Part shown: in pieces, positions 16,014 to 36,970 of the stretch | How the letters are laid out: the number at the start of each line of letters is the position of its first letter | Numbering within the stretch: the first letter of the stretch is position 1 | Made by a program: the position numbers and the translations under genes | Assembly: GCA_034003725.1 (NCBI GenBank) | Contig: JAVEYB010000003.1 | Coordinates: forward strand, 49,486-113,485 | Direction: 5' to 3' | Length of the DNA stretch: 64,000 bases | Source: Candidatus Zixiibacteriota bacterium | GTDB lineage: Bacteria > Zixibacteria > MSB-5A5 > GN15 > FEB-12 | Notes under the pieces: generated by a model | Databases searched by the model: none | What the model was told of the DNA's origin: nothing | The model's input: the letters and a program-made list of their open reading frames with translations, nothing else

Positions 16014-16022
16014 AAATCGTGG

Positions 16023-18048: not shown

Positions 18049-18058
18049 TACGAGTCCT

Positions 18059-18805: not shown

Positions 18806-18807
18806 GG

Positions 18808-19230
18808 CTATTTTCGCCCGCCTTCCTCGTGTCCGGTGACCAGGCCGATCGCCTCGATGCCCATTTCTTTCATGCGGCCGATGATGTCGATCACCGCCCC
18901 GTACGCGACCGCGGAGTCGCCGCGCACGTATACCGACCCGGTGTTCTTACTGACCATTTCCGCTTTGAGGCGCTCTTCGAAATTGGTCGGGTTCGAGAAA
19001 ACGTCGTTGATATACACGCCGCCTTTCTTGTCGACCGTAATCACCACGCCTTCGGCTTCTTCCTCGATGGCCGCGGCTGTCGTTTTCGGCAGGTCGATTT
19101 CAATACCCGACTGCAGCAGCGGCGCGGAGATCATGAAGATGATCAGCAGCACGAGGACCACGTCAACGAGATTGGCGATATTGATATCGGCCATGGTGTG
19201 GTACGAGCGGATATGGCGCCGACGGATCAT
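18808..19230 (-). CDS. tolR: Biopolymer transport protein TolR/ExbD
   Basis: 'MADINIANLVDVVLVLLIIFMISAP' (the conserved TM with Asp) and 'VYVRGDSAVAYGAVIDIIGRMKEMG'. It overlaps tolQ by 4 nt. Confidence 0.85.
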   Translation of the reverse strand: MIRRRHIRSYHTMADINIANLVDVVLVLLIIFMISAPLLQSGIEIDLPKTTAAAIEEEAEGVVITVDKKGGVYINDVFSNPTNFEERLKAEMVSKNTGSVYVRGDSAVAYGAVIDIIGRMKEMGIEAIGLVTGHEEGGRK

Positions 19231-22434: not shown

Positions 22435-24290
22435 TTTACGTGCTTCAGAGCTCCTTCGGGGTAAATATTCAGTTCGGTGGCCCAGGAGACGAGATGCGAC
22501 ACGCGCTCGTGTTCGCTCAGCGACGACAGGTCAAACGGTCGTCCGCGCCCGTCGAGAATGATACCGACCACGCCACCATGAATTTCGCGCTCAACGGTTT
22601 TGCCGGGTCCGGCGCCGACATCGAAGTTTCGTTCCGGTTCAAACCGCGCCTTCGCCCTCAGCGGCAGGCTGTCCGGTCCCATCCCGAGTTCAAACCGCTT
22701 CATTTCCAGGAAGTTGAGCGTGCCGCTCACCTGGCCGGAGGGGAGGTCAATCGAGTACTTCATGACCGGTCCGCCCTTTTTGGACACCCCGGCGGGGGCG
22801 ATGCAGGTGCCGAGGTGAATCAGGCAGTCTTTCTCGAACACTTCAGTCGCGGCTTTCGGCTGAACCTCGGTGAGTACGCCGAGCTGCGGCATCATGAAGA
22901 TTGAATCCACGGCGAGCCGGGTGATCCCCTCGGGTAAGAAGGAATCGATCATCATGAGCGCCGACTGCTGGCGGCGCGGCGCGTGTGAGAGCACTCCGCC
23001 GGAGCCGATCAGCATGTCGAGCGTCATCATATTGACGATCGTTTTTCCGGAGGAGCTCTGGTCGAACGCGTCGGCGATCGTCCGTTGCTGCTGGACGCCT
23101 TTCAGCACGGTGGCGAAGTTCTTATGCTGGACGAAGGCCAGGCGCAGCGCCTCGCGCGCAATGGCCTGCTCGAAAATCAACTCTTCCATCGACTGCGGAA
23201 TGGTCGTCGGGCGAATCATTTTGTTTTTCACGCGGTTGCGCAGGTCGCGCTCATCCATGATAAACGGAACCCATCGCATGACCATCGGCAGCGTCGCCTC
23301 GGCAAACACATTCGAGATCGAATAGGACATGCCGAGGTTCGCCGATACCGTGCGGTTGAAGACCGGCTGGTCGTCGGGACGGAAAACCGAGAACACGTCG
23401 GTTGTCGCACCGCCGATATCGACCCCGACCGCTTCGATGTTATATTGTCTGGCGATAGTCTGGATGATCAGGCCGACCGCGCCCGGAGTCGGCATGATCG
23501 GGGCGTCGGTCCACGACATCAGCTTTTTGTATCCGGGCGCCTGCGCCATCACGTGCTCCATAAACAGCTCGTGAATCTCTTCGCGGGCAGGTCCGAGGTT
23601 TTCACGCTCGAGGACGGGGCGGAGGTTGTCGACCGACCGGAGGTCCACTTTATCAGCCAGCACTTTTTCGACATCTTTGGTGGCGTCCCGGTTACCCGCA
23701 TAAATGATCGGGAGCTTGTAGGATGATCCCAGGCGGGGGCGCGGGTCGGCCGCCGACACGAGCTCGGCGAGTTCAACGACGTGAGTGGTCGTTCCGCCGT
23801 CGATACCGCCGGACAGAAGGATCATGTCGGGGCGCAAGTGCCGGATACGTTCTATTTGCTGATGCGGCAGGCGCTTGTCGTTGGACGCGATCACGTCCAT
23901 GACAATCGCCCCGGCCCCCAGCGCGGCGCGTTCAGCGGATTCGGCCGTCATCGACCGCACCACTCCCGCCACCATCATCTGAAGACCGCCGCCGGCCGAC
24001 GACGTCGAGATATACACGTCGGTGCCGACATCACCTCTCGACGGTGTGATGAACTTACCGTTTTCGTCGAGAATTTTGCGTCCGGAGAGCTCCTCGAGTT
24101 CGCCGACCGCGTTGAGCACGCCCATGGTAACGTCTTCGAATGGCGCCTCAACAGTCGTCGGCGCTTCGCCACGGGTGGTCTGGCGATACTCGCCGTTGAT
24201 ATACTCAATGAGAATGGCTTTGGTGGTGGTGGATCCGCAGTCGGTTGCAACGATGATCTTAATGTCGTCCGGATTATCGAATTTAGCCAT
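22431..24290 (-). CDS. GlmL/MutL-family protein (glutamate-mutase-L-like, actin/ASKHA-fold ATPase), long 619-aa form
   Basis: 'IIVATDCGSTTTKAILI', 'ISTSSAGGGLQMMVAGV..TAESAERAALGAGAIV', 'MILLSGGIDGG' and 'AVGVDIGGATTDVFSV' are the phosphate-1/2 and adenosine motifs of the GlmL (MutL) family. Confidence 0.7.
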   Translation of the reverse strand: MAKFDNPDDIKIIVATDCGSTTTKAILIEYINGEYRQTTRGEAPTTVEAPFEDVTMGVLNAVGELEELSGRKILDENGKFITPSRGDVGTDVYISTSSAGGGLQMMVAGVVRSMTAESAERAALGAGAIVMDVIASNDKRLPHQQIERIRHLRPDMILLSGGIDGGTTTHVVELAELVSAADPRPRLGSSYKLPIIYAGNRDATKDVEKVLADKVDLRSVDNLRPVLERENLGPAREEIHELFMEHVMAQAPGYKKLMSWTDAPIMPTPGAVGLIIQTIARQYNIEAVGVDIGGATTDVFSVFRPDDQPVFNRTVSANLGMSYSISNVFAEATLPMVMRWVPFIMDERDLRNRVKNKMIRPTTIPQSMEELIFEQAIAREALRLAFVQHKNFATVLKGVQQQRTIADAFDQSSSGKTIVNMMTLDMLIGSGGVLSHAPRRQQSALMMIDSFLPEGITRLAVDSIFMMPQLGVLTEVQPKAATEVFEKDCLIHLGTCIAPAGVSKKGGPVMKYSIDLPSGQVSGTLNFLEMKRFELGMGPDSLPLRAKARFEPERNFDVGAGPGKTVEREIHGGVVGIILDGRGRPFDLSSLSEHERVSHLVSWATELNIYPEGALKHVK

Positions 24291-24542
24291 CTGAAAACCG
24301 CTATGTGAGAAAGTGTATTGTTCTTCTATCTTATTGTCTCTCTTCGAGGTATAGGCGGTTGTTGCCGCGTTACCCCGACTGAATCAGACAACGAGTATAA
24401 CATACCCTGCAAAGTTTGTAAAGCGCCATTTTACCTCGGAGGCCCGCTTCAGTCGGAAGAGCCGGAGGCCCGGAGTCATGGCGAAACGGACCCGCAAGCT
24501 GTTGTGTGGCAGGAAGATGGCGGCGACAGCCGATTTTTTCGC

Positions 24543-24572
24543 TTGACTTGGTGGTGGAGCGCTTCTTAATTA
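24543..24572 (+). promoter_or_regulatory. Candidate sigma70-type promoter for the 12-gene cassette operon
   Basis: TTGACT (24543-24548), a 17-nt spacer, then TTAATT (or an 18-nt spacer and TAATTA). This would leave a leader of about 150 nt before the TTG start at 24730. Confidence 0.3.
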
Positions 24573-24729
24573 CCACCTTTCGCTGGGAACGGTAGTGCAA
24601 TTCCCCGCTGGTGAGGCTGACGGGACCGGGGCACTTCGGTTAATCACTGTTTGATAAACGGTCCGGATCAGCCGTCTCTCCAGAAAGTGCCGGCACGTGC
24701 GGACTGATATTCGGTAAGGGAGCCTGAGC

Positions 24730-25986
24730 TTGACATTGCCACCTACGAGGTCCACCTCCCGCGCGATTGTTTCGCTTCTACTGGCGATTGTACTCGCCTG
24801 GGCCCCGCCATTGGCCGCTCAGGATCAACCCGGCGTTCCTTCCGACACTATTCTTTCAGACACTACTCTGCAGATTCTTCTGCCGCGTCCCGTGCCCGCG
24901 GTGACCGTCAAGGATACGCAAGACGACGGCGGCGGCTCGATCACGGTAACCTGGGAGGCATCGGCCGATGACGGCGATGGCGGGATCATTAACCGGTATG
25001 TGATCTACCGGGCGACATCGGCGGAAGGCCCTTTTGAAGAAGTGGGCGATGCCACCAACAACGCCACGACCTTTTCCGACGGGAGTGCGGAAGACGACGT
25101 GGCGTATTTTTATCGGGTAGTTCCGATGACGCTGGCGCTGGCCGGCCAGCCGGTGCCCCCGGCGCTGGTCGAGGGCGCGATGGTTGCCGGTCCGGTGAGT
25201 TCGTCGGCCCAGTGGCTTGACTGGCGGCGGATCAACGTACTGGTTGGCGTGCTGCTGCTGTGCGTTTTCATTATCTACTACATCAATCAGGCGAAAGCCG
25301 GCAAGTCGTTGTTTATCCGCAAGATTGCCGGACTGGAAGCGGTGGACGAAGCGGTCGGGCGCGCCACCGAGATGGGCAAAAAGATTTACTATATCCCCGG
25401 CACGCAGGACATGGACAATGTCCAGACGATTGCGGGCGTCACCATTCTGGGCCGGGTCGCGGAGCTTGCCGCTCAATACGAAACATATCTGCAGGTGCCG
25501 GTTTCGCGTTCGCTGGTGCTGGTCACCGCTCGCGAAATCGTCAAGGAAGCCTACTCGAAGGCGGGGCGCCCGGATGCCTTTCAGGAGGATCAGGTTCATT
25601 ACCTGACCGACGATCAGTTCGGTTATGCCGCCGGTATCGACGGGATGGTGGTGCGGGAGAAGCCCGCCACGATTTTCTTCATGGGAGCTTTTTACGCCGA
25701 GTCGCTGATTCTCGCGGAGACGGGCAATTCGATCGGGGCGATTCAGATTGCGGGCACCGGGATGCCGTCCCAGTTGCCCTTTTTCGTCGCGGCGTGCGAC
25801 TACACGCTGATCGGCGAGGAGTTGTTTGCGGCCTCGGCGTATTTGTCGCGCGAGCCCAAGCTGCTTGGATCGCTGAAAGGGCAGGATATGGGCAAGGCGG
25901 TCATACTTATCGCGATAGTCGTCGGGCTCGTTCTCGAGACCTTCGGTATATGGAGCTTCTCCAGGCTTTTTTCGGTGATACAGTAG
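24730..25986 (+). CDS. Cassette subunit A1: signal peptide + FN3-like periplasmic head + TM + conserved ~195-aa core + C-terminal TM; uncharacterised family
   Basis: TTG start 7 nt after AAGGGAG. Leader 'AIVSLLLAIVLAWAPPLAAQD'. FN3-like pattern 'SITVTWEAS..INRYVIYRATS..YFYRVVPM'. TM 'INVLVGVLLLCVFIIYYI' followed by 'KAGKSLFIRK'. Core motifs 'GRATEMG', 'AESLILAETG' and 'LIGEELFAASAYL' are shared with A2 and A3. Confidence 0.8.
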   Translation: MTLPPTRSTSRAIVSLLLAIVLAWAPPLAAQDQPGVPSDTILSDTTLQILLPRPVPAVTVKDTQDDGGGSITVTWEASADDGDGGIINRYVIYRATSAEGPFEEVGDATNNATTFSDGSAEDDVAYFYRVVPMTLALAGQPVPPALVEGAMVAGPVSSSAQWLDWRRINVLVGVLLLCVFIIYYINQAKAGKSLFIRKIAGLEAVDEAVGRATEMGKKIYYIPGTQDMDNVQTIAGVTILGRVAELAAQYETYLQVPVSRSLVLVTAREIVKEAYSKAGRPDAFQEDQVHYLTDDQFGYAAGIDGMVVREKPATIFFMGAFYAESLILAETGNSIGAIQIAGTGMPSQLPFFVAACDYTLIGEELFAASAYLSREPKLLGSLKGQDMGKAVILIAIVVGLVLETFGIWSFSRLFSVIQ

Positions 25987-25987
25987 C

Positions 25988-26635
25988 ATGCGTAGAGAAA
26001 TTCCTCTGATCATAACGGGCATCGTGGGCATCGTGTTCGTCGTCCAGTACTTCATTCCGCACTGGCCGTTCAACCGCATGAATGCCTGGTTTTCGGACTG
26101 GTTCTCTATCGTGCAGGCGTGCGCAATCTGGCTGGGCGCGCTGAACCTGCTGAAGATTTCGCTGGAGAAAATCGCGCGGCGCAAGTCAGACTGGGGCTAC
26201 GCGGTCGTGATCATCGTGAGCTTTTTGCTGATCGCGATTATCGGGTTCCTCGAAGGCGAGGCGTTCCGTGACCCCGGCACCAAGTTTACGTGGCTGTACG
26301 ATTTCGTGTACACGCCGCTGTCGTCGACCATGTTTGCAATCCTGGCGTTTTTTGTCGCGTCGGCGTCCTACCGCGCCTTCCGGGCGCGCAATTTTGAGGC
26401 GACCCTGTTGCTGCTGGCGGCCTTTTTCGTGATGCTCGGGCGGGTGCCGGTCGGCGACGCGCTGACGGCGTTTATGCCCGAGGGATGGCGATTGACCGAC
26501 CTGGCCACCTGGATCATGAACTTCCCGCAGACGGCCGGACAGCGCGCCATCATGATCGGTATTGCGCTGGGCATCGTGTCGACTTCGCTGCGGATTATTC
26601 TCGGGATCGAGCGGTCTCACCTCGGAGGCGATTGA
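25988..26635 (+). CDS. Cassette subunit B1: ~6-TM integral membrane protein; uncharacterised family
   Basis: ATG 1 nt after the A1 stop. 'MRREIPLIITGIV', 'LAFFVASASYRAFRARN' and 'AGQRAIMIGIALGIVSTSLRIILGIER' are shared with B2 and B3. Confidence 0.8.
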   Translation: MRREIPLIITGIVGIVFVVQYFIPHWPFNRMNAWFSDWFSIVQACAIWLGALNLLKISLEKIARRKSDWGYAVVIIVSFLLIAIIGFLEGEAFRDPGTKFTWLYDFVYTPLSSTMFAILAFFVASASYRAFRARNFEATLLLLAAFFVMLGRVPVGDALTAFMPEGWRLTDLATWIMNFPQTAGQRAIMIGIALGIVSTSLRIILGIERSHLGGD

Positions 26636-26636
26636 C

Positions 26637-27647
26637 ATGAGCACTCGCGTGAAAGAAATCCTTGTCGTCGTCCTGGTGTTGCTCTTCAGCGCCGTGATCT
26701 ATGCCGGCAAAGTCTCCGGCTGGATGACGGGGGTCAGCTTCTCGCCGGCGGTGTCTGTATTAGTGATCGTCGCACTGGCGGCGTCGCTGATCGTGATCCT
26801 GGTGATGACTATCAAGGGCCGGCTGGTGGGCCGGCGCACGGTCTTTTTGTATGTCGGCTTCGCCGTGGCGCTGCCGTTGTTCATGTCCATCAGCCAGTAC
26901 ATACCGACATCGCCCGAGGTTCGTTCGCTTTACGAAGGGCTGGAGTCGCTTCCCGACGGTTCCAAAGTGCTGGTTTCATTCGACTACGATCCGCCGTCCG
27001 CGCCCGAGTTGCAGCCGATGGCGGAGTCGTTTTTCCGGTACGCGTTCGATCGTAAGTTCAAAGTCATCATCATGGGGCTCTGGCCCCAGGGACCGCTGCA
27101 GGCCAACCAGGCAATCGAGCGCGTGATGCAAGACGAGAAGTACGCGTCGCTCGGCCTGCAATACGGTGTGGATTACTGCAACCTGGGTTTTCAAACCGGG
27201 AACGAATTCGTCATTCAACGCATGGGATCGGACTTCCGGTCCATGTTTCCGACCGACTACAGCGGGACGCATTACGAAGACCTGCCGATCGTGAGAAACG
27301 TCAAGAATTTCTCGAACGTCGATTACGTGTTCAATCTCTCGGCCGGTTACCCGGGGACGATCGAGTGGGTGCAGGTGGCGGTTGACCGCTACGGGGTCAA
27401 ACTCGGCGCAGGGAACACCGCGGTGCAGGCGCCCCAGTGTTATCCGTACCTGCGGTCGGGACAGTTAATCGGCATACTGGGCGGGATGAACGGCGCCGCC
27501 GAGTTCGAGAAGATGACCGGTCATGAGGCGAAGGGCACGAAGTTTATGCTGTCGCAGTCGTTTTCGCATATGATCGTGATCGCGTTTATCATCATCGGCA
27601 ACGTCGCGTTTTTCATGGGCGGCCGGAAGAGCAACCTGTCGGCATGA
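26637..27647 (+). CDS. Cassette subunit C1: membrane protein with N-terminal TM(s), ~250-aa predicted periplasmic domain and C-terminal TM; uncharacterised family
   Basis: ATG 1 nt after the B1 stop; the listed ORF was trimmed. 'SFDYDPPSAPELQPMAESF', 'YPYLRSGQLIGILGGMNGAAEFE' and the C-terminal TM 'HMIVIAFIIIGNVAFFMGGRK' are shared with C2 and C3. Confidence 0.8.
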   Translation: MSTRVKEILVVVLVLLFSAVIYAGKVSGWMTGVSFSPAVSVLVIVALAASLIVILVMTIKGRLVGRRTVFLYVGFAVALPLFMSISQYIPTSPEVRSLYEGLESLPDGSKVLVSFDYDPPSAPELQPMAESFFRYAFDRKFKVIIMGLWPQGPLQANQAIERVMQDEKYASLGLQYGVDYCNLGFQTGNEFVIQRMGSDFRSMFPTDYSGTHYEDLPIVRNVKNFSNVDYVFNLSAGYPGTIEWVQVAVDRYGVKLGAGNTAVQAPQCYPYLRSGQLIGILGGMNGAAEFEKMTGHEAKGTKFMLSQSFSHMIVIAFIIIGNVAFFMGGRKSNLSA

Positions 27648-27664
27648 CGGTGGAAGGTCAGTAG

Positions 27665-28312
27665 ATGTTCTGGGAACACTTTGCACTCTGGGTCGCCGCG
27701 TTTCTGACGCTCGGGATCTACTCGTTCCTGTACAAGGACAACCCGTGGTACAAGCTGTGCGAGTCGATCTTTGTCGGCATCTCGGCCGGCTACTGGTTTG
27801 TCACGCTGTTCTGGGATAACATCTACGGCAAGTTCTGGGTCGGCGTGTTCCCGACCGGAGACGCCCAGCCCGATTACTGGCTTTTGGTGGGCGCGGCGCT
27901 GGGGCTGTTGATGCTGTTGCGCCTGATTCCGAAGATCGGCTGGGTGTCGCGCTGGTCGCTGGCCTTTATCGTGGGTGCGACCGCCGGATTTTACCTGATC
28001 AATTATTTCTCCTCGAACGTCATGCGCCAGGTGCAGGACACCGTGATGCCGCTGTTCGGGCCGGGCTTCAATGCCTCCGCGTATGTCATCATCGGCAACA
28101 TCGTCGTGGCCGTGGGCACGTTTACCGGGTTGGTATATTTCTTCTTCTCGAAGGAGCACAAAGGGGCGTTCGGGGCATCGGCGAAGATCGGGATATTCTT
28201 TCTGATGGTCACCTTCGGCGCGTCGTTCGGCTACACGGTGATGAGCCGTATGTCCCTGTTGATCGGACGTATAGACTTTCTTCTGAGCGACTGGCTGGGG
28301 TTGATTCGCTAG
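27665..28312 (+). CDS. Cassette subunit D1: ~6-TM integral membrane protein; uncharacterised family
   Basis: 'FLTLGIYSFLYKDNPWYKLCESIFVGISAGYW', 'YFFFSKEHKGAFG' and 'FGASFGYTVMSRMSLLIGR' are shared with D2 and D3. Confidence 0.8.
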   Translation: MFWEHFALWVAAFLTLGIYSFLYKDNPWYKLCESIFVGISAGYWFVTLFWDNIYGKFWVGVFPTGDAQPDYWLLVGAALGLLMLLRLIPKIGWVSRWSLAFIVGATAGFYLINYFSSNVMRQVQDTVMPLFGPGFNASAYVIIGNIVVAVGTFTGLVYFFFSKEHKGAFGASAKIGIFFLMVTFGASFGYTVMSRMSLLIGRIDFLLSDWLGLIR

Positions 28313-29583
28313 TGCGATTCGCGCCGATGACAGACGGGGGACGTCGCACTCGCCTCACGGTCGTTGTCCTCGCAGCGTGCTTCACCATCAGTATTATCGC
28401 CGTCTCCGTATCGGGGCAGTCGGAGACCGTTTCCATCGCGCCCGCCGATACCGCAATCGCGGTTCGCCCGCCCGCGCCTCCGACCTCGGTGGTTGCCGAG
28501 GACTACAAGTACGACAACGCCAAGCATCTCGTCTTGTCGTGGGTGCCCTCGATTGACGATCAGCCCGGCCGCACGCTGGTCCTGGGCTATCGCATTTTCC
28601 GTTCGTCGGGCGGCGGGGCTTTTATGCCTGCGGGCTCGGCGCTGCCCGGCGCGTCCTCGTTCCGCGACGAACGATTGAGCAAAGATTCCAGCTACGTGTA
28701 CTATGTCGCGGCGGTATCCGCCACCGATACGGTGGCGTCGATCAAAACGCAGGCGATTTCGCCGAAGCGCGAGTATCTGCATCTCGATCTGGTCTGGCTG
28801 TTCGTGATCGCGTTCTGCATATCTTCGTCGGTCATCTACTTCATCTGGAAAGCGCGCGCGGGCAAGAAGCTTTTTGTCCGCAAGATTGCGGGGTTGGACG
28901 CGGTCGACGAGGCCATCGGCCGCGCGACCGAGATGGGCCGCCCCATACTGTTTATTCCAGGCATACAGGACATGGACGACGTACAGACGATCGCCGGGCT
29001 GACGATACTGGGGCGGGTCGCCAAGCAGATCGCCGACTACGACACGCGCATCCGCATGCCGGTGTCGCGTTCGCTGGTGATGACGGCGGCGCGAGAGACG
29101 ATCAAGGCCGCCTACCAGATCGCGGGCCGCCCCGACGCGTACTCCGACGACATGGTGAATTACGTGACCGATGAGCAGTTCGGGTACGTGGCCGCGGTGG
29201 ACGGTATCATGGTTCGCGAGAAACCAGCCACGATCTTTCTGCTCGGCGCGTTTTTCGCCGAATCGCTCATTCTGGCCGAGACCGGAAATTCTATCGGCGC
29301 AATCCAGATCGCCGGCACCGCGCGACCGGCCCAGCTGCCGTTTTTTATCGCCGCGTGTGACTTCACGCTGATCGGCGAAGAGCTGTTTGCGGCGTCGGCG
29401 TATCTTTCCGGCGAGCCCAAGCAGCTTGGCTCGCTGAAGGGTCAGGATGTCGGCAAGGGACTGGCCATGGCGGCCATTCTGCTGGGTGTGCTGTCCGTGA
29501 CGCTCGGGCAGGCGTTTGATATCGGCTTCTTCAACTGGCTGGCCGACGGTCTGTCGACCATCTTCTCGGCGGCGGTGGAATAG
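28312..29583 (+). CDS. Cassette subunit A2 (paralog of A1)
   Basis: GTG start overlapping the D1 stop (TAGTG); ATG 28327 is an alternative. FN3-like pattern 'HLVLSWVPS..GYRIFRSS..YVYYVAAVS'. The core is about 74% identical to A1 by my hand count over about 195 aligned residues. Confidence 0.8.
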   Translation: MRFAPMTDGGRRTRLTVVVLAACFTISIIAVSVSGQSETVSIAPADTAIAVRPPAPPTSVVAEDYKYDNAKHLVLSWVPSIDDQPGRTLVLGYRIFRSSGGGAFMPAGSALPGASSFRDERLSKDSSYVYYVAAVSATDTVASIKTQAISPKREYLHLDLVWLFVIAFCISSSVIYFIWKARAGKKLFVRKIAGLDAVDEAIGRATEMGRPILFIPGIQDMDDVQTIAGLTILGRVAKQIADYDTRIRMPVSRSLVMTAARETIKAAYQIAGRPDAYSDDMVNYVTDEQFGYVAAVDGIMVREKPATIFLLGAFFAESLILAETGNSIGAIQIAGTARPAQLPFFIAACDFTLIGEELFAASAYLSGEPKQLGSLKGQDVGKGLAMAAILLGVLSVTLGQAFDIGFFNWLADGLSTIFSAAVE

Positions 29584-29585
29584 TC

Positions 29586-30263
29586 ATGAAACGCCAGGTA
29601 CCCCTGTTCATCACGTTTTTCGTGGGCACGCTGCTGATCGTGTCGGTGTTCAGCCCGCCTATCGAAACGCTGGGCGAAGATTTCTCCGTGTTTTTCGATA
29701 TCATCGCGGTGTTCGCCTTTTTCCTCGGCGGCGGCAATCTGCTGCGCGTGCATTTGACGAAAATCTCGCGCCGGAAGCACGACTGGGCGTACTCGATCGT
29801 CACGCTGGTCGGATTCGTCGTCATGCTCTGGGCCGGGTTGTTCAAGGTGTGGAACGAGGGCGGCATCGCCGCCTCGGTGACGGCCGAGGAGTCCCTGTTC
29901 GGGATGATTTTCAACTCGGTGCTGATTCCGCTTCAGTCGACCATGTATTCGCTTCTGGCGTTTTTCATCGCCTCGGCGTCCTATCGCGCGTTCCGGGCCA
30001 AAAACCGTGAGGCGACGATTCTGCTGGTGGCCGCCTTCATCATTCTGCTCGGTCGCACCGCGTTCGGCACCATGTTGACCGCGTGGATGCCGTCGAGCCT
30101 GTCGGCGATGGAGATCCCGAATCTGGCTATCTGGATCATGAATTCACCAAACCTGGCCGGACAGCGTGCGATCCTGATCGGAATCGGGCTGGGTGTCGTT
30201 TCGATGTCGCTGCGTATTATTCTCGGCGTCGAACGGACGTACCTGGGGGATGACGGCAAATGA
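29586..30263 (+). CDS. Cassette subunit B2 (paralog of B1)
   Basis: 'MKRQVPLFITFFVG', 'LAFFIASASYRAFRAKN' and 'AGQRAILIGIGLGVVSMSLRIILGVER'. Confidence 0.8.
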   Translation: MKRQVPLFITFFVGTLLIVSVFSPPIETLGEDFSVFFDIIAVFAFFLGGGNLLRVHLTKISRRKHDWAYSIVTLVGFVVMLWAGLFKVWNEGGIAASVTAEESLFGMIFNSVLIPLQSTMYSLLAFFIASASYRAFRAKNREATILLVAAFIILLGRTAFGTMLTAWMPSSLSAMEIPNLAIWIMNSPNLAGQRAILIGIGLGVVSMSLRIILGVERTYLGDDGK

Positions 30264-31219
30264 TCTTCGACGTCCCCCTGCTGCTGCTGGCCGCCGGTAG
30301 CGAGGCTACCGCAGGTACCTATGTGTCTCTGCTCGTCATCGGGCTCGGCCTGCTCGCGCTTCTCTACGTGTCAATCAAGGCAATCGAAGTCGACCGCCGC
30401 GTCATCTTCTTGTTTATCTTCCTATCCGTTTCCGTGCCGATTCTCTTTCCGATCACGTTCGAGGAACAGGCGACGCCGGTCGTAAAGCGGGCGTTTGACC
30501 ATATCGAAAACCTTCCCGAGGGTTCGCGGGTGCTGCTGTCGTTCGACTTCGATCCCGCCATGGCGCCCGAAGTACAGCCGATGGCGGACGCAATCATGCG
30601 CCATGCCCTCGCGAAGAATCACAAAGTTATCTTCATGTCTCTCTGGGCGACGGGGCAGGGGCTGCTCGATCAGACCATGCGTCGTATTCTACCTGTCGAG
30701 TTTCCCGACAAGATCGACGGCAGAGATTACGTCTCGGTCGGATACACGGCCGGCAACGAAGGCGTTCTGAACGTGATCGTATCGGATTTCAAGAAGATGT
30801 TCCCGTCGGACGTCAACTCGGTTCCGCTCGACAGTATCGAGATTTTCGAGGGTGTTTCATCGTGCCGTGACCTTGACCTTGTCGTCACCTTCGGCGGCGG
30901 AAAGCCCGGCGCCAAGGAGTGGGTGCTTTTTGTCGGAGACCGTGCCAGCGTACCCGTTGCGGTCGGGGTGGCCGCCGTGGTGGCGCCGCAGATGTACCCG
31001 TATTTCCCCGACCAGGTGGTCGGCATTCTGGGAGGCATCAAGGGTGCGGCGGAGTACGAGTCTGAACTGATCAAGCAGTATCCGCAGTTCGCCGAGCGCG
31101 GCACGCCGGGTCTGGTGATGATGGGGCCGCAGACGCTGGCGCACGTCGTTATCATCGCCTTCATCGTATTCGGCAATGTCGCTTACTTCGTTGGGCGAAG
31201 AAGGGAGATGAAACGGTGA
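30260..31219 (+). CDS. Cassette subunit C2 (paralog of C1)
   Basis: ATGA overlap with B2. 'SFDFDPAMAPEVQPMADAI', 'YPYFPDQVVGILGGIKGAAEYE' and C-terminal TM 'HVVIIAFIVFGNVAYFVGRRR'. Confidence 0.8.
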   Translation: MIFDVPLLLLAAGSEATAGTYVSLLVIGLGLLALLYVSIKAIEVDRRVIFLFIFLSVSVPILFPITFEEQATPVVKRAFDHIENLPEGSRVLLSFDFDPAMAPEVQPMADAIMRHALAKNHKVIFMSLWATGQGLLDQTMRRILPVEFPDKIDGRDYVSVGYTAGNEGVLNVIVSDFKKMFPSDVNSVPLDSIEIFEGVSSCRDLDLVVTFGGGKPGAKEWVLFVGDRASVPVAVGVAAVVAPQMYPYFPDQVVGILGGIKGAAEYESELIKQYPQFAERGTPGLVMMGPQTLAHVVIIAFIVFGNVAYFVGRRREMKR

Positions 31220-32019
31220 AACGGTCATCGATCGTCATCCTCAGCGCCGTTGTCGTTTTGTTTCTGGTCAGTTGGATTTTGAAGGGCGCATCGTTCAGCG
31301 GCGACGACAATCCCTATCTGCGCGGCTTCCTGACAACCGCGGCGGCGTTTTTGACGTTGGCCGTGTTTTCGTTCCTGTACCAGGACAATCCGTTTTACAA
31401 GTTTGCGGAGCACCTGTTTGTCGGCGTTTCCGCCGCCTACTGGATGGTGCTCGGGTTCTGGCAGACGCTGGTCCGCAATTTGATTCCGCGTTTGTCCTCC
31501 GATTTGGCGGCCTGGTTCGAGACGCCGTCCAAAGACATCAGTCTCTGGTACATCATTCCCGTCATTTTCGGGTTGCTGTTGTTGATGCGACTGTCCAAGT
31601 CGGCCGGCTGGATCTCGCGCTGGCCGCTGGCGCTGATTATCGGATACACCGCGGGAATCAACTTCGTCGGCTACATGCGCTCCGACTTCGTAAATCAGAT
31701 TGCGGCCACGTTTGTGCCGCTGCTGGTGAACTGGCAGGGGACAGGAGCGTTTTTCAGCGACTTCTCGCTGGCGATCGACGGGCAGTTCGTCATGATGCTG
31801 TCGAACTGGGTGATTTTTGTCGGCGTCATGTGCGGTTTGATTTACTTCTTCTTTTCCAAGGAGCATACGGGCCTGTTCGGATCGGCGTCGAGGGTGGGCA
31901 TCTGGATTCTGATGATCACGTTCGGTGCGTCGTTCGGTTACACCGTCATGGGCCGCATCTCATTGCTGGTGGGACGGCTCACCTTCCTGTTCAGGGACTG
32001 GCTGGAACTGATCGGCTGA
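31216..32019 (+). CDS. Cassette subunit D2 (paralog of D1) with extra N-terminal TM segment
   Basis: GTGA overlap with C2. 'FLTLAVFSFLYQDNPFYKFAEHLFVGVSAAYW', 'YFFFSKEHTGLFG' and 'FGASFGYTVMGRISLLVGR'. Confidence 0.8.
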   Translation: MKRSSIVILSAVVVLFLVSWILKGASFSGDDNPYLRGFLTTAAAFLTLAVFSFLYQDNPFYKFAEHLFVGVSAAYWMVLGFWQTLVRNLIPRLSSDLAAWFETPSKDISLWYIIPVIFGLLLLMRLSKSAGWISRWPLALIIGYTAGINFVGYMRSDFVNQIAATFVPLLVNWQGTGAFFSDFSLAIDGQFVMMLSNWVIFVGVMCGLIYFFFSKEHTGLFGSASRVGIWILMITFGASFGYTVMGRISLLVGRLTFLFRDWLELIG

Positions 32020-32064
32020 TTGAGGATATTACACGCAGGTACTCTTCATGACTGTGGAGGGACT

Positions 32065-33678
32065 ATGACATATGTGCTACGGGCGTTCCTGGTCTTCGTG
32101 TGCCTGACGGGCACCGTGATCACGGCGCAGACCGACCCGCCGCCGGTGGATACGACGGCAGTGGAGGTCGCCGCGATCGCGCCGCCGGCGCCGGTGACCG
32201 GGCTTGTGGGCCGGGACAGGAACAACGATCACGGCCATGCCATCGACCTGAGCTGGACACCGTCGGTCGACGATCTGGAGAGTCCCGATGGGGCGAAGTC
32301 GGTCGTTCGGTACCGGATCATGATGTGGAAGCCGGCGTATGCGTATCACGTGGATACGCTCCGCCAGATGTACGAGATGGCGCGCAGCAGCCTGCCGCCC
32401 ATTCGCGTCTACAAGCCGCTGGTCGACTCCGCCCTGTCGCTGCTCAGCAAGGGCGTCGCGAGTGTCGCCGAACTGCCGTTTGCGGTCGCACTTCCCGAGG
32501 GGGTCGATTTCTCGGACACGACCGTGAACTGGATGGACCAGGTGCGGAGGTCGCTCGAGGACACGCTGGCCGCGATGACCGGCGAGGTTGAAATATCCAA
32601 GGATTCCGTCAAGAGCTTCCGTCGGGCCTTTCTCGCGGCGGTCGACTCGTTGCCGGCCGCCTACGGCGCCGCCGGCCCGTCGACCGGAGGCGGCCGCTGG
32701 GATTCGGTGGGGGCTGAAGTCCCCGGTGCGACCGGTTTCCGGCACTCCGGTTCCAAAGACGAGGTCTCACCGGATTTCCTGCCCGATTTCACCGACCTGT
32801 ATTACCGGGTCGACGCCGTGACGTCGGATGCCGCCATCTTTACGCCATCCGAGGGGTACGGTCCGGTGCAGGCATCCGGACAGTGGTATAACACGGGGCG
32901 TACGGTGGTGCTGATTTCGGTGCTCATTTTCACTATTCTGACGGTGACGTTCGTGTCCCATGCGCGCGGCGGCAAGCAGTTGTACGTTCGACCGCTGGCG
33001 GGAATCGAAGCGGTTGACGATGCGATCGGCCGCGCCACCGAAATGGGCAAACCGATCCTGTACGTGCTTGGCCTCGGCACGGCGGCCGATATCGCGACGA
33101 TCGCGTCGTTCACGATTTTGAGCCGCGTCGCCAAGCGTGTCGCCGAGTACCAGACGCAGTTGATCGTTCCGACCTACGACCCGATCGTCATGACGGTCGC
33201 GCAGGAGGTCGTGAAGTCGGCGTATCTTGACGCCGGTCGACCGGATGATTACAACGAAGATATCGTGTACTTCGTAACGCAGTCGCAGTTCGCGTACGTG
33301 GCGGCGGTCAACGGCGTGATGCTTCGCCAGCTGCCCGCGACGAACGTGTACATGGGACGGTTCTATGCCGAGTCGCTGATTCTCGCCGAGACCGGCGCGC
33401 TGGCCGGGTCGATCCAGATTGCCGGCACCGACGAGATCGCGCAGATTCCGTTCTTCGTCGTCGCCTGCGACTTCACGCTGATCGGCGAGGAGCTCTACGC
33501 GGCGTCGGCCTACCTCGGCGGCGAGCCGGTGCTGCTTGGATCGCTCAAGGCGCAGGATTACGCCAAGGCGCTCTTTGTGACCTGTGCGGTGCTGGCCTTT
33601 GTCGCCCTCGTAGTGGGGGATCTCACCGGCGCCGAGTGGATCGCACAATTCAAAGACTGGTTCAGAGTGTCGGATTAG
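32065..33678 (+). CDS. Cassette subunit A3 (paralog of A1/A2) with enlarged periplasmic head
   Basis: ATG preceded by GGAGGG; the listed TTG start at 32020 is an alternative. Signal peptide 'MTYVLRAFLVFVCLTGTVITAQT'. The FN3-like strands 'AIDLSWTPS..VVRYRIMMW' and 'LYYRVDAVTS' are split by a segment of about 150 aa. The core is about 57% identical to A1 by hand count. Confidence 0.75.
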   Translation: MTYVLRAFLVFVCLTGTVITAQTDPPPVDTTAVEVAAIAPPAPVTGLVGRDRNNDHGHAIDLSWTPSVDDLESPDGAKSVVRYRIMMWKPAYAYHVDTLRQMYEMARSSLPPIRVYKPLVDSALSLLSKGVASVAELPFAVALPEGVDFSDTTVNWMDQVRRSLEDTLAAMTGEVEISKDSVKSFRRAFLAAVDSLPAAYGAAGPSTGGGRWDSVGAEVPGATGFRHSGSKDEVSPDFLPDFTDLYYRVDAVTSDAAIFTPSEGYGPVQASGQWYNTGRTVVLISVLIFTILTVTFVSHARGGKQLYVRPLAGIEAVDDAIGRATEMGKPILYVLGLGTAADIATIASFTILSRVAKRVAEYQTQLIVPTYDPIVMTVAQEVVKSAYLDAGRPDDYNEDIVYFVTQSQFAYVAAVNGVMLRQLPATNVYMGRFYAESLILAETGALAGSIQIAGTDEIAQIPFFVVACDFTLIGEELYAASAYLGGEPVLLGSLKAQDYAKALFVTCAVLAFVALVVGDLTGAEWIAQFKDWFRVSD

Positions 33679-33691
33679 GAGGACATGACTG

Positions 33692-34342
33692 ATGAGACGA
33701 CAACTACCTTTCATACTTGTCTTCCTGGCCGGCTTCTTCATGATCTTCCAGTATTTCGTGCCGCACGAAAGATCGGAGTTCGTGTACGAGTTTCTGCTGG
33801 ACTGGTTGACGATTATCGGCGGATTCGCCATGGCGCTCGGCATCTGGTCGTTGATCCGTGTCTCGACGGACAAGATCAGGCGCAAGCGTGAAAACTGGGG
33901 CTATTCGATTATCACCCTCGCCGGTCTGTTCTCTATGATGTTTTTCGGCATCACGAACTGGGAGGACGGGTCGTTCGGGTTCTACATCTACACGGCTGAA
34001 GGCCTGAGCAATTCGATGTTCCGGCATTTCTTCGATTATATCCTTATTCCGATCCAGGCGACGATGTTTTCGCTGCTGGCGTTTTTCATCGCCTCGGCGG
34101 CCTACCGCGCCTTCCGCGCCCGCAGCGTGGTGGCGTCCTTGCTGCTGCTGGCGGCGCTGATCGTGATGATGCGGTTTAATCCGATGTTCGGGGCGTGGAT
34201 CGAGACGGTCGCCAACTGGCTGATGAACGTGCCCAATCTCGCCGCCCAGCGGGCGATCGTGATCGGCATCGGGCTCGGCATCGTGGCGACCGCGCTCAAG
34301 ATCATCCTCGGGATCGAACGCGGCTACATGGGACAAGGGTAA
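33692..34342 (+). CDS. Cassette subunit B3 (paralog of B1/B2)
   Basis: AGGAGG lies 8 nt upstream. 'MRRQLPFILVFLAG', 'LAFFIASAAYRAFRARS' and 'AAQRAIVIGIGLGIVATALKIILGIER'. Confidence 0.8.
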   Translation: MRRQLPFILVFLAGFFMIFQYFVPHERSEFVYEFLLDWLTIIGGFAMALGIWSLIRVSTDKIRRKRENWGYSIITLAGLFSMMFFGITNWEDGSFGFYIYTAEGLSNSMFRHFFDYILIPIQATMFSLLAFFIASAAYRAFRARSVVASLLLLAALIVMMRFNPMFGAWIETVANWLMNVPNLAAQRAIVIGIGLGIVATALKIILGIERGYMGQG

Positions 34343-34354
34343 GGAGAGAAGACT

Positions 34355-35230
34355 ATGAACTTTTTTGATCGGTTAATGAGACTTGACCGGCGCTGGGTCT
34401 TTCTCTTCCTCACCGTGGTGTGTGTGGCCGGCTATTATGTCGACTACTCCATACCGATCCGCGTGACCAAGGAGACCCGGTCCATCTACGACTTCATCGA
34501 TTCGTTGCCGCCGGGTGATATCGTGTTTGTCGCGATCGACTACGATCCGTCGAACCAGGCGGAGCTGCACCCCATGACCTACGCGATCATGGAACACGCA
34601 TTCCGCAAGAACCTGCGGATCATTTTCACGGCGCTCTCGCAGAACGGCCCCGGCATGGCGGACCAGGCGATTCGGGACATCACTGACTCGGTCGCACTCG
34701 ACCGGACCTACAACGGGATCGAATACAAGGGACGGCAAATCGTCAACGGCGTCGACTACACGTTTCTCGGATACAAACCGTACTTTTCGATTATCATCCT
34801 GAGTATGGGGCAGAACTTCCGGATCTCGTTCCCGACCGATTATTACGGGACGCCGCTGGATTCCATTCCGATGATGCGTGGCGTGCTCAACTACGACAAC
34901 GTGGCCTGCCTGATCGACCTGTCGGGCGGCAATATCACCGATGCGTGGATTTCGTACGGGCAGGGGCGTTACAATTTCCCGCTGGCGCTCGGTCTGACCG
35001 GCGTCATGACCGCGCAGTACTATCCGTACCTCAATTCCGGGCAGGTGTTCGGGATTATGGGCGGTATGCTTGGCGCGGCCCAGTATGAAAGACTGGCCGA
35101 TAATCCCGGGCTGGCGATTGACGGTATGCGGGTGCAGCTGCCGGCGCATATCGTTATCCTGCTGTTTATCATCATCGGGAACATCGGCTACTTCGTCACT
35201 CGGCGCAAAGTACAGCTGGAAGGGAGGTAA
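34355..35230 (+). CDS. Cassette subunit C3 (paralog of C1/C2)
   Basis: AAGGAGAG RBS. 'AIDYDPSNQAELHPMTYAI', 'YPYLNSGQVFGIMGGMLGAAQYE' and C-terminal TM 'HIVILLFIIIGNIGYFVTRRK'. Confidence 0.8.
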   Translation: MNFFDRLMRLDRRWVFLFLTVVCVAGYYVDYSIPIRVTKETRSIYDFIDSLPPGDIVFVAIDYDPSNQAELHPMTYAIMEHAFRKNLRIIFTALSQNGPGMADQAIRDITDSVALDRTYNGIEYKGRQIVNGVDYTFLGYKPYFSIIILSMGQNFRISFPTDYYGTPLDSIPMMRGVLNYDNVACLIDLSGGNITDAWISYGQGRYNFPLALGLTGVMTAQYYPYLNSGQVFGIMGGMLGAAQYERLADNPGLAIDGMRVQLPAHIVILLFIIIGNIGYFVTRRKVQLEGR

Positions 35231-35236
35231 CGAGGT

Positions 35237-36046
35237 ATGGACTTCACAACATTCTTGTGGACGACCCTGGGCGCCTTCCTGACGCTGGCCACGTTTTCCT
35301 TTTTGTATAAGGACAATCCCTTCTACAAGCTGGCCGAGCATCTGGTTGTCGGCGTGTCCGCCGGGTATTTCGTGATAATCGTGTGGCACGGCACCATGGT
35401 GCCGAACCTGTTCCAGAAGCTGGCCGACGGCGACTGGTTCATGTTGTGGCTGAATTCAACGCAGCCGTGGTATATCGTCCCGGGGATCCTCGGCATTCTC
35501 ATGTGGACGCGCTTCTCCCGGAAGTACGGCTGGTTGTCGCGCTGGCCGATGGCGCTGTATATCGGTATTGCTGCCGGTGTGGCAGTGCCGCTCGAGATGT
35601 CCAACAAGGTCAACAAGCAGCTGGTCGCGACCATGGTGGACATCAACTGGTCCAACTTCATGGGCACCGGCTTTTTTGATCCTTTCTCCGGACTGGCGAA
35701 CCTGCTGATCTTTATCGGGGTCATCGCCGGGCTGATCTACTTCTTCTTCTCGAAAGCCCACACGGGCGCGGTCGGAGGAGTGGCCAAGCTTGGGATCTGG
35801 ACGCTGATGATCGGATTCGGGGCGTCCTTCGGATTTACCGTGATGGCGCGTATATCGCTGTTTATCAACCGTCTGCAGTATCTGGATAAAAACTGGCGGG
35901 AGGCGGCATTTGATTCGTCGAACCCGAACTACGGCGCCGGATTCCAGATCGTGTTCTGGCTGATAATCGCGCTGATTGTGGTTTACGTCGTGCGGGAAAT
36001 AATGACTCACCTGAGTCACAAAAAGGCCAATTCGGCGACTGAGTAA
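35237..36046 (+). CDS. Cassette subunit D3 (paralog of D1/D2) with extra C-terminal TM segment
   Basis: 'FLTLATFSFLYKDNPFYKLAEHLVVGVSAGYF', 'YFFFSKAHTGAVG' and 'FGASFGFTVMARISLFINR', with a C-terminal extension 'FQIVFWLIIALIVVYVV'. Confidence 0.8.
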   Translation: MDFTTFLWTTLGAFLTLATFSFLYKDNPFYKLAEHLVVGVSAGYFVIIVWHGTMVPNLFQKLADGDWFMLWLNSTQPWYIVPGILGILMWTRFSRKYGWLSRWPMALYIGIAAGVAVPLEMSNKVNKQLVATMVDINWSNFMGTGFFDPFSGLANLLIFIGVIAGLIYFFFSKAHTGAVGGVAKLGIWTLMIGFGASFGFTVMARISLFINRLQYLDKNWREAAFDSSNPNYGAGFQIVFWLIIALIVVYVVREIMTHLSHKKANSATE

Positions 36047-36396: not shown

Positions 36397-36481
36397 GGCG
36401 GCGGAGTGAGGGACCTTCACAAGACAACACTTTAGCCACGGAAAGGGTAGCAACCGCAACACATGGAAAGTGAGGTGGCTC

Positions 36482-36835
36482 ATGCCGCGGACGAAGAAGA
36501 GTGCCGAGGCCGAAGCCCTAGCCGACTCCGTGTCAGACGGCACTTCAGCCCAGGATGAGCAGAAGCCGAAATCAAAATTGTCGACCGCAGAAGCCCGACG
36601 CGAGTATCAGCGGCGGTATTATCAGATGCATAAGGAAAAAGCAAAAGAGTACCAGCGGCAGTATAACCTGACGCACAAGAAAAAGGCGCGCGGACGCGGA
36701 AAATCCAGTTTTTCGGCGCCCCGTGAGGTCGTGCGGTCTACTTTCAATACGTCGGACATCATGCACGCACCCGTCGAGAAGACGGTTCGCATGTTGGAGC
36801 AGATCATCCGGGGTGATCGATTCTTCACAATGTGA
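36482..36835 (+). CDS. Small lysine/arginine-rich hypothetical protein
   Basis: ATG preceded by GAGGTG; the listed ORF starts at GTG 36470. Sequence 'KPKSKLSTAEARREYQRRYYQMHKEKAKEYQRQYNLTHKKKARGRGKS'. I recognise no family. A candidate hairpin (36860-36897) follows. Confidence 0.4.
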   Translation: MPRTKKSAEAEALADSVSDGTSAQDEQKPKSKLSTAEARREYQRRYYQMHKEKAKEYQRQYNLTHKKKARGRGKSSFSAPREVVRSTFNTSDIMHAPVEKTVRMLEQIIRGDRFFTM

Positions 36836-36970
36836 GCTGGGTTGCGACAACCAGATCTGAGGCGGCCGGAATCAGGAGGTTTCGGTCGCCTTTTCTGTTG
36901 CCTCACAACGTTTTTTTCTTAGATTGTTGGGACTTTACCAGAGTTTTTAAGTCCTAACTTGGGAGAACGT

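Follow-up and report, generated by a model that had tools for sequence, protein, structure and literature searches.

The described membrane systems closest in make-up to the one treated here are the ABC importers, the GldF/GldG gliding system of Bacteroidota, and the Na+-NQR and Rnf complexes. Our subject is a region of twelve co-directional genes at 24730–36046 on the plus strand of a 64,000-nucleotide stretch of contig JAVEYB010000003.1, from a Candidatus Zixiibacteriota bacterium; this whole stretch is referred to as the window. According to the open reading frame (ORF) listing, the region consists of three complete sets of four genes, A-B-C-D, which are three whole-module paralogues of one four-subunit cytoplasmic-membrane complex. 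Two further genes, E and F, lie divergently upstream and are linked to the cassette in other genomes as well. A preliminary description of the region, made by reading the sequence without database searches, had assigned the cassette to no recognisable family.

The cassette resembles ABC importers in having two different subunits of the six-transmembrane (TM) type (B and D), a periplasmic α/β domain (C) and a cytoplasmic α/β module (the DUF6754 domain of A), and in two phyla it adjoins genes for TonB-dependent uptake. It differs in that it has neither a Walker A motif nor a significant ABC match in Pfam, the periplasmic domain of C is a single Rossmann-like lobe anchored at both ends, and the linked ATPase candidate, E, has the ASKHA fold rather than a P-loop. 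A pattern search for Walker A ([AG]xxxxGK[ST]) found no match in the twelve proteins, as the preliminary description had stated, and none of them matches ABC_tran; the LSGGQ signature was not searched separately. Profiles of ABC permeases (BPD_transp, ABC2_membrane, FtsX and related families) had no match among 45 B and 44 D proteins at E values up to 0.1.

In the Bacteroidota gliding system, which is of the ABC-2 type, GldG-type proteins have a TM helix at either end and a periplasmic domain in the middle, and the permease is a protein of ∼240 aa with about six TM helices. Similarly, C has a domain between two TM helices and a partner with about six TM helices; the gliding system belongs to FCB bacteria, and the cassette is found mostly in candidate phyla related to that group. 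However, B, C and D have no ABC_transp_aux or ABC2_membrane match in Pfam, C is about half the size of GldG, and no gene for a GldA-like ATPase is adjacent to the cassette. With Na+-NQR and Rnf, the cassette and its linked genes share an inventory of two ∼200-aa subunits with about six TM helices, subunits anchored by a single TM helix and a cytoplasmic barrel-sandwich subunit, and some homologues of F match RnfC_N. Unlike those complexes, the cassette shows no sequence homology to them and no flavin or Fe-S motifs, and an ASKHA protein stands in place of the NADH/ferredoxin module. We found neither a homologous pair of the NqrD/E or RnfA/E kind nor an FMN-binding subunit of the NqrC/RnfG kind, and no Rnf, Nqr or FMN_bind match.

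ASKHA proteins are known to dock on bitopic membrane proteins, as in type IV pili (PilM-PilN), type II secretion (GspL) and FtsA, and E is likewise encoded beside a membrane complex, in which subunit A presents a conserved domain to the cytoplasm. E also matches the Pfam MutL family, to which GlmL/MutL proteins belong, although it has neither the equivalog score nor the glmS-glmE location of a GlmL. Tol-Pal and TonB-ExbBD are envelope systems and recurrent neighbours of the cassette, by adjacency rather than membership: MotA_ExbB, ExbD/TolR and TonB domains are absent from A–D, and those of the MotA_ExbB and ExbD/TolR kind occur only in the neighbouring genes at 18808–19919.

Pfam and NCBIfam scans agree with the preliminary description that the twelve proteins carry no ABC, MFS, RND, Rnf/Nqr or Tol/Exb signature, and no match to a characterised complex emerged from Pfam, NCBIfam, profiles of PDB sequences or Foldseek (A and C). 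On present evidence, then, the cassette lies outside every characterised kind of membrane system, as judged by negative searches at the level of hidden Markov models (HMMs) and by Foldseek comparison of A and C with the PDB. The statement that it belongs to no recognisable family holds for B, C and D, which lie outside Pfam and NCBIfam, but not for A, which matches DUF6754 end to end and also has an FN3 domain.

Three paralogous sets of four genes

The ORF listing and independent gene calls agree with the number, orientation and sizes of the genes as first described (Table 1). The independent calls were made on the source contig, a Logan assembly of 32 kb, and differ only in later starts for A1 (364 aa) and A2 (418 aa), and the B1 protein was recovered exactly on an independent contig. 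Intergenic gaps across the twelve genes range from −4 to +45 nt, and a pattern scan found no excess of terminator-like or promoter-like sites within the region. It is plausible that the twelve genes form one transcription unit.

All-against-all BLASTP confirmed homology at each position across the sets. A1 and A2 are 52% identical (E = 3e-125), A1 and A3 46%, and A2 and A3 45% (E values of 1e-87 to 1e-125 for the family); the other families show 39–47% (B), 32–37% (C) and 43–50% (D). The range over all four is thus 32–52%, with E values of 1e-46 to 1e-125. Cross-family comparisons of A, B, C and D gave nothing better than E = 0.03 in BLASTP, and hhalign comparisons of alignments with more than 100 sequences gave probabilities of at most 5% (0.3% for B versus D). 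By these measures the four families are mutually unrelated. The motifs quoted for B, C and D in the preliminary description are present, except that D1 reads YSFLY and not FSFLY.

Over 195 columns of the DUF6754 core, A1 is 74% identical to A2 and 58% to A3, in good agreement with earlier hand counts of ∼74% and ∼57%. When identity between sets is broken down by region, DUF6754 shows 58–74%, FN3 24–35% and the periplasmic domain of C 34–41%, and the TM anchors of A are barely conserved. This pattern suggests that the variable face of the complex is periplasmic and the constant face cytoplasmic.

The proportion of synonymous differences (pS) is 0.54–0.69 between paralogues and 0.66–0.93 to orthologues, so that synonymous sites are near saturation. 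The corresponding nonsynonymous proportion (pN) to orthologues is 0.13–0.30 for each of the twelve genes, and these low values indicate that purifying selection keeps every copy. The earlier proposal of strong synonymous divergence and an old triplication kept intact is thereby upheld. Positional orthology is seen in at least 13 loci with triple cassettes, most of them labelled Zixibacteria: genes at positions 1, 2 and 3 are closest to sets 1, 2 and 3 of the window, and orthologues are 55–80% identical, compared to 32–52% between paralogues. In a second Zixibacteria subclade, the order of the sets differs. Single-copy cassettes of other phyla are about equally near sets 1 and 2 and are rarely nearest to set 3. 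These distances are consistent with an expansion within the Zixibacteria lineage. The triplication is old and modular, the whole cassette having been duplicated as a unit.

Conservation of the cassette across phyla

A scan of one genome per GTDB species yielded at least 498 stretches encoding A; the loci studied here are the best 78 of these, all from metagenome assemblies. HMM annotation found the order A-B-C-D in nearly all of these species-level loci. Recurrence of this order in independent loci argues that it is not due to chance. Most of the loci carry labels of candidate phyla related to the FCB group. The labels include Zixibacteria, WOR-3, Stahlbacteria, Coatesbacteria, Fermentibacteria, Aegiribacteria, Cloacimonadota, Eisenbacteria, Gemmatimonadota and Marinimicrobia, and a few loci are labelled Planctomycetota, 'Deltaproteobacteria', Armatimonadota or Bacillota. 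One set is the rule in most phyla. Two or three sets occur mainly in loci that carry a Zixibacteria label, or an Ignavibacteria label with closest similarity to the window, and loci with two or four sets also occur. The chromosome CP070824.1 has A-family matches at three places: one is an A-B-C-D cassette on its own, another a cluster of several cassettes, and the third an A-like ORF standing alone.

Some genomes encode C-D fusion proteins of ∼575–600 aa (P0254, P0284, P0329 and L070:15316-17040). Together with the recurrent gene order, these fusions provide further evidence that the four products probably work together physically. Synteny, C-D fusions, positional orthology and purifying selection establish the cassette as a conserved unit. 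Its homologues are syntenic and not scattered, and with synteny over many phyla and whole-module duplication the data bear out the conserved multi-subunit unit that the preliminary description had envisaged.

Subunit A

A1, A2 and A3 match the Pfam family DUF6754 (PF20539) with 421, 408 and 375 bits, respectively, relative to a gathering score of 27 (E values of 1e-112 to 1e-126). The matches span profile positions 2 to 249–256 of 257, and precomputed Pfam annotation of the source contig agrees. DUF6754, which occupies the C-terminal ∼250 residues of A, is a catalogue entry only, a Pfam family without characterised function; literature searches for DUF6754/PF20539, for Zixibacteria with FN3, and for GlmL with ASKHA or these phyla returned nothing relevant in the library searched. 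The domain is 60–67% identical between phyla.

Several observations identify the N-terminal part of A as an FN3 domain. In a profile search of PDB sequences, the family profile matches the solved FN3 chains 3lpw (E = 4e-6) and 3mpc (E = 6e-4). Structure models (AlphaFold2, AF2) and Foldseek comparisons with the PDB cover A1 and C1 only. In the A1 model, residues 50–160 have a predicted local distance difference test score (pLDDT) of ∼86–95, and Foldseek matches them to FN3 domains with a probability of 1.0 and a target TM-score of up to 0.76. The Pfam fn3 model itself matches A only below threshold (E = 0.093). For the A1 model as a whole, Foldseek returned only FN3 matches, because the DUF6754 core is half unmodelled.

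Hydropathy and charge counts predict that A has a signal peptide followed by FN3 in the periplasm, a first TM helix, cytoplasmic DUF6754 and a second TM helix. The signal peptide looks cleavable, the TM anchor is poorly conserved, and a Lys/Arg-rich stretch follows TM2. The FN3-like head of A and the central domain of C had been placed in the periplasm, and hydropathy, positive-inside counts and the AF2 models are consistent with this placement. All twelve products had also been described as membrane-embedded, but in A ∼200 aa form a soluble cytoplasmic domain. A lipobox had been described as absent: eleven proteins have no match to a simple lipobox pattern, and A2 contains one, LAAC at residue 20. 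Among the conserved residues of A–D there is a single invariant Cys, and it lies in A.

Other assignments suggested by the sequence alone were considered and rejected. Reading GRATEMGK in DUF6754 as a P-loop fails since the segment has one residue too many, its Lys is not invariant, and it forms a helix followed by a strand in the model. A HAD-like reading (DMDNV...SRS...TDD) has the motifs in the wrong strand order, and its one support is a weak Foldseek match, to a Nir2 domain, with a root-mean-square deviation of 26 Å; as to B12 binding, prompted by GlmL, no invariant His is listed for A or F.

Subunits B, C and D

B and D are polytopic proteins of ∼215 aa, each with about six hydrophobic segments by hydropathy. 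The AF2 model of C1 (pLDDT 88.5, predicted TM-score 0.81) contains a six-stranded Rossmann-like α/β domain between N- and C-terminal TM helices. Charge counts show that both termini of C are Lys/Arg-rich and the domain acidic, which argues that the domain is periplasmic. Invariant polar or charged residues lie in or beside hydrophobic segments of B, C and D.

None of these subunits has a Pfam or NCBIfam family in the window. Among 45 B, 44 D and 47 C family members, a Pfam scan found no family above threshold; the one weak match to recur is TMD0_ABC, below the gathering score, in 12 of the 45 B proteins (best E = 9e-5). It may reflect composition, given that the profile of B has no match at all in the PDB. 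Profiles of B, C and D have no match among PDB sequences, and for B and D not a single chain was returned at E values up to 10. For C1, Foldseek against the PDB gave only generic Rossmann-like folds (best E = 1.2e-3, TM-score at most 0.3), none with both E < 1e-3 and TM-score > 0.5. The DYDP motif of C had suggested, from its residues alone, a vWA/MIDAS domain; vWA structures are absent among the listed Foldseek matches.

The families vary in their decorations. An exhaustive search found 2448 representatives of D at 50% clustering, some with N-terminal extensions of 100–230 aa or central inserts of 200–390 aa; ten long D homologues tested against Pfam contain no known domain. Some B proteins reach ∼595–617 aa through an insert of ∼390 aa in a predicted periplasmic loop after TM3 (L012:18729-20510, L032:15583-17367, L072:10790-12586 and L078:4167-6017). 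The insert in L012, a set-3 B, is an FG-GAP β-propeller (PF13517, E = 4e-28), and those in L072 and L078 have no Pfam match. Separately, one NCBI record names a C homologue (P0201) 'radical SAM protein', which is likely misleading.

Genes linked to the cassette

Clustering of flanking ORFs identified E and F as conserved neighbours of the cassette, with family lengths of ∼617 and ∼375 aa. Their linkage to the cassette, which appears to be new in this analysis, and the Tol/Ton neighbourhood described below were not mentioned in the preliminary description; both are linked to the cassette.

E scores 240 bits against the NCBIfam model GlmL (cut-off 475) and 175 bits against glmL_fam (cut-off 204), below both cut-offs, and has an additional C-terminal extension of ∼130 aa. 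Its ASKHA nucleotide-binding motifs are at least 90% conserved across phyla. As a single sequence compared with PDB sequences, E gave one weak match, to an archaeal actin-like protein (E = 0.26). The flanking ORFs examined include no glutamate-mutase genes; the neighbours of E are the cassette, a gene for a 264-aa protein, F and tol-pal. In our reading, F starts with a barrel-sandwich hybrid, continues with an α/β region and has a C-terminus like KOW/SH3 domains. The window copy has no Pfam family and no PDB match in a profile search, and some homologues match PF25984 or PF13375 (RnfC_N) and have a KOW-like C-terminus. With regard to existing annotation, JGI names F homologues (P0404, P0409 and others) 'transcription antitermination factor NusG', and E homologues may, through their Pfam MutL match, be annotated as glutamate-mutase accessory proteins; both names are likely misleading.

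E-F is adjacent to the cassette in 28 of the 78 loci, and in 19 of the 51 that have at least 4 kb of upstream sequence. We also sampled from the side of F, taking 80 metagenome loci around F homologues, of which 55 were informative; 50 of these carry A-B-C-D beside E-F, mostly colinear. The difference between the two samples (50/55 versus 28/78) indicates that E-F rarely occurs apart from the cassette, whereas cassettes are often found with no E-F beside them. In a Marinimicrobia locus (L061:2-2623), a single ORF immediately upstream of A encodes a fusion of E and F; it is truncated by the end of the contig and runs to at least 869 aa.

In Fermentibacteria and some Zixibacteria, the arrangement is a colinear c2-c3-E-F-A-B-C-D, the commonest form, and in the clade of the window it is divergent, E and F being single-copy there and lying divergently upstream of the cassette. 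The 264-aa protein lies between E and F only in loci with the divergent arrangement. In c2 (∼100–170 aa), the N-terminal segments are hydrophobic and the C-terminal motif LSPF...SRLENFRG is conserved; c3 (∼105–185 aa) has a conserved hydrophobic helix. The two are found upstream of E in L012, L020, L030, L031, L045, L057, L072 and many of L079–L158. Both are absent from the window, and two c2/c3 representatives have no Pfam match. hhalign comparisons of A and C with E and F, and of B and D with c2 and c3, found no homology.

In the window, the tol-pal cluster is immediately preceded on the same strand by E, the 264-aa protein and F, which take the place that ybgC has at the head of tol-pal in E. 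coli. Fermentibacteria have D followed by genes for a SusC-like TonB-dependent receptor, ExbB, ExbD, ExbD and TonB, and in WOR-3 an ExbB-ExbD-TonB cluster lies downstream of the cassette. Ton or Tol genes thus recur near the cassette in three phyla (Zixibacteria, WOR-3 and Fermentibacteria).

Other neighbours were noted. Loci of the Fermentibacteria type (L031, L038, L045, L057 and L055) have gcvT and genes for two P-protein subunits immediately upstream of c2-c3-E-F-A-B-C-D on the same strand; a 127-aa ORF between these glycine cleavage genes could be gcvH. In other lineages, an M28 peptidase, a PLP-dependent decarboxylase (Orn/DAP/Arg type) or acyl-CoA dehydrogenases are encoded nearby. Amino-acid and peptide catabolism is a loose theme among these neighbours.

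Possible function of the complex

Our preferred reading, to which we would give not quite an even chance, is that the cassette encodes a new inner-membrane translocation complex in three variants of periplasmic specificity. B and D would together form the membrane pathway. C, the FN3 domain of A and lineage-specific inserts, such as the FG-GAP propeller in the B loop, would make up a periplasmic face for recognition or capture, and DUF6754 would be a cytoplasmic coupling or catalytic module, docking on conserved, predicted cytoplasmic loops of B (YRAFRA) and D (KDNPxYK and FFSKEHxG). E, as an ASKHA-fold ATPase-like protein, and its partner F would serve the module by acting on DUF6754; gene linkage suggests the interaction between E and A. 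The complex may move a periplasmic or envelope substrate across the inner membrane, working downstream of TonB-dependent uptake or alongside Tol-Pal. The three sets would be variants in substrate or partner specificity, possibly with one common E-F module, and they are read in this way since divergence is mainly on the periplasmic side and DUF6754 is kept. A more ambitious version is doubtful: that A–D are the membrane core of an unrecognised class of trans-envelope transport system of mainly FCB-related candidate phyla, driven through DUF6754 by the ASKHA protein E with F in place of a P-loop ATPase and cooperating with outer-membrane systems of the TonB or Tol type, with an eight-gene form c2-c3-E-F-A-B-C-D and at least three variants in Zixibacteria.

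Several points weigh against translocation. A–D show no signature of a transport family, including Walker A and any ABC, MFS, RND or other transporter match in Pfam. An internal repeat or duplication was looked for in B and D, and none was found. TM topology derives from hydropathy alone, the AF2 models covering A and C, and in the A1 model residues 301–361, the most conserved part of DUF6754, have a pLDDT of ∼30; this may reflect a shallow alignment or a requirement for partner subunits. Of the cassette loci with at least 4 kb upstream, 32 of 51 lack a nearby E-F, which may be optional or encoded elsewhere. Finally, Ton/Tol genes adjoin the cassette in clumps on the phylogeny, and this could be a gene order passed down by descent rather than a sign of functional coupling.

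The cassette could also be explained by a machine for envelope biogenesis or maintenance that works with Tol-Pal/Ton and exports or inserts a lipid, lipoprotein or glycan, or forms a tether between the inner membrane and the wall or outer membrane. In the window, E-F and the 264-aa protein stand at the head of the tol-pal operon, ExbB/ExbD/TonB clusters adjoin the cassette in WOR-3 and Fermentibacteria, FN3 and FG-GAP are typical of extracytoplasmic interaction modules, and the very high cross-phylum conservation of the cytoplasmic domain is what one would expect of a housekeeping machine. However, genomes with three to four paralogous sets that differ in their periplasmic faces are better explained by substrate variants than by a single housekeeping machine, the SusC-like TonB-dependent receptor next to the cassette in Fermentibacteria points to uptake, and Pfam/NCBIfam scans match no Lpt, Lol, Mla, Wzx or other biogenesis family; we consider this explanation unlikely, if still a serious one. 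A membrane enzyme or ion-translocating complex, in which a reaction of DUF6754, with or without E-F, is coupled to ion movement through B and D in the manner of Na+-NQR/Rnf or an Na+-translocating decarboxylase, is improbable. The subunit inventory is Nqr/Rnf-like (two ∼215-aa subunits with about six TM helices, single-TM anchored subunits and a cytoplasmic barrel-sandwich protein), and yet there is no Nqr/Rnf match in Pfam or NCBIfam, and B and D are not homologous to each other as NqrD/E or RnfA/E are. The invariant polar or charged residues in or near hydrophobic segments of B, C and D would suit ion movement, as would the few F homologues with PF13375, the amino-acid catabolism genes near the cassette in some lineages, and the DUF6754 motifs, which, judging from secondary structure and conservation, look placed at predicted strand ends like Rossmann-type active sites. 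Conserved Cys clusters and a flavin-attachment motif are missing, the one invariant Cys being that of A, and variable propeller and FN3 decorations in the periplasm would not be expected of an ion pump.

A different question, which concerns the triplication and not the function, is whether the twelve proteins form one hetero-oligomer with the sets as obligate partners. Sets 1, 2 and 3 occur together in fixed order in many Zixibacteria and are tightly packed as one apparent transcription unit. Against this, a single set suffices in most other phyla, loci with two and four sets exist, CP070824.1 has its A-family matches at three separate places, set order differs in the second Zixibacteria subclade, and the entire module was copied at each duplication. 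We regard a single hetero-oligomer as quite improbable. Of the two alternatives raised in the preliminary description, specificity variants are favoured over a 12-protein hetero-oligomer, because most phyla have a single set, the sets are intact as units and divergence is concentrated on the periplasmic side. Least probable is a trans-membrane sensor, with FN3, α/β and propeller domains sensing a ligand in the periplasm and DUF6754 and E-F relaying the signal. Such a sensor would account for variable periplasmic domains joined to a conserved cytoplasmic domain through the poorly conserved TM anchors of A, and for linked cytoplasmic partners, but no signalling domain, whether histidine kinase, GGDEF, HTH or another, occurs in A–D, E or F, no regulator recurs consistently beside the cassette, and two conserved polytopic subunits would be unusual.

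If the cassette does encode a machine, it would be a deeply conserved inner-membrane complex whose four core subunits all lack a characterised relative. Lineages that carry it include Zixibacteria, Marinimicrobia, Cloacimonadota, Fermentibacteria, WOR-3 and Gemmatimonadota, which are large, uncultured and important in sediments, oceans and anaerobic digesters. Finding its function would close a gap in the metabolic and envelope models derived from these genomes and could reveal a new principle of energy coupling, an ASKHA ATPase driving a membrane complex. It would also correct annotations of E as a glutamate-mutase accessory protein and of F as NusG. The triplication, with its divergence on the periplasmic side, offers a natural experiment for determinants of specificity.

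Gene coordinates and flanking sequence

Table 1. Features of the cassette region and its surroundings, in window coordinates
Feature	Position	Strand	Product length	Description
A1	24730..25986	+	418 aa	Signal peptide; FN3 ∼aa 50-160; TM 168-186; DUF6754 aa 159-413 (Pfam); C-terminal TM 390-408; PF20539 E 1.6e-126
B1	25988..26635	+	215 aa	Polytopic, ∼6 TM helices; motifs LAFFVASASYRAFRA and AGQRAI
C1	26637..27647	+	336 aa	N-terminal TM helices; six-stranded Rossmann-like domain in the periplasm; conserved Q/H/N in the C-terminal TM
D1	27665..28312	+	215 aa	Polytopic; motifs SFLYKDNPxYK, YFFFSKEHxG, FGASFGYTVM
A2	28312..29583	+	423 aa	Alternative start 28327 gives 418 aa; DUF6754 E 1.6e-122
B2	29586..30263	+	225 aa	47% identity to B1, E 4e-66
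C2	30260..31219	+	319 aa	4-nt start overlap with B2 stop; 37% identity to C1, E 3e-64
D2	31216..32019	+	267 aa	Additional N-terminal TM; 4-nt start overlap with C2 stop; 44% identity to D1, E 1e-61
A3	32065..33678	+	537 aa	From ATG; ORF opens at TTG 32020; DUF6754 E 1.9e-112; 46% identity to A1
B3	33692..34342	+	216 aa	39% identity to B1, 44% to B2
C3	34355..35230	+	291 aa	Minimal form: TM, domain, TM (hydropathy); 37% identity to C1
D3	35237..36046	+	269 aa	Additional C-terminal TM; 50% identity to D2
E/A1 intergenic region	24291..24729			439 nt, divergent; presumed promoter region of both transcription units
E	22431..24290	−	619 aa	GlmL/MutL-family ASKHA-fold ATPase-like; PF13941 E 4e-130, residues 13-489
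264-aa protein	21640..22434	−	264 aa	Between E and F; hydrophobic N- and C-terminal segments; no Pfam family
F	20493..21614	−	373 aa	Predicted cytoplasmic partner of E
tolQ-tolR-tolA-like-tolB-pal-cpoB	15207..19919	−		Context, outside cassette; Pfam MotA_ExbB, ExbD, TonB_2, TolB_N/PD40, OmpA, TPR
Basic ORF	36470..36835	+	121 aa	424 nt downstream of D3
Pyruvate phosphate dikinase ORF	36959..39805	+		From first possible start, TTG

The periplasmic part of A3 is ∼110 aa longer than that of A1. In the intergenic region between E and A1, a pattern scan found one sigma-70-like site, on the minus strand (24422–24394), and none on the plus strand; the scan does not cover other promoter types.

The small basic 121-aa ORF downstream of D3 is conserved in its place ahead of pyruvate phosphate dikinase in at least two related loci (L014 and L056). 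A promoter-like site of its own lies at 36368–36396, and the hairpin after it (36859–36892) is the strongest terminator-like one in the region. The pyruvate phosphate dikinase ORF begins with a Lys/Ala-rich stretch of ∼50 aa, and the Pfam match starts later; this stretch may merely reflect the upstream start call. GC skew in the window is positive from ∼4 kb to 50 kb and negative on either side, with a shift in the sign of AT skew near 36 kb, a pattern that probably follows the blocks of genes on each strand.

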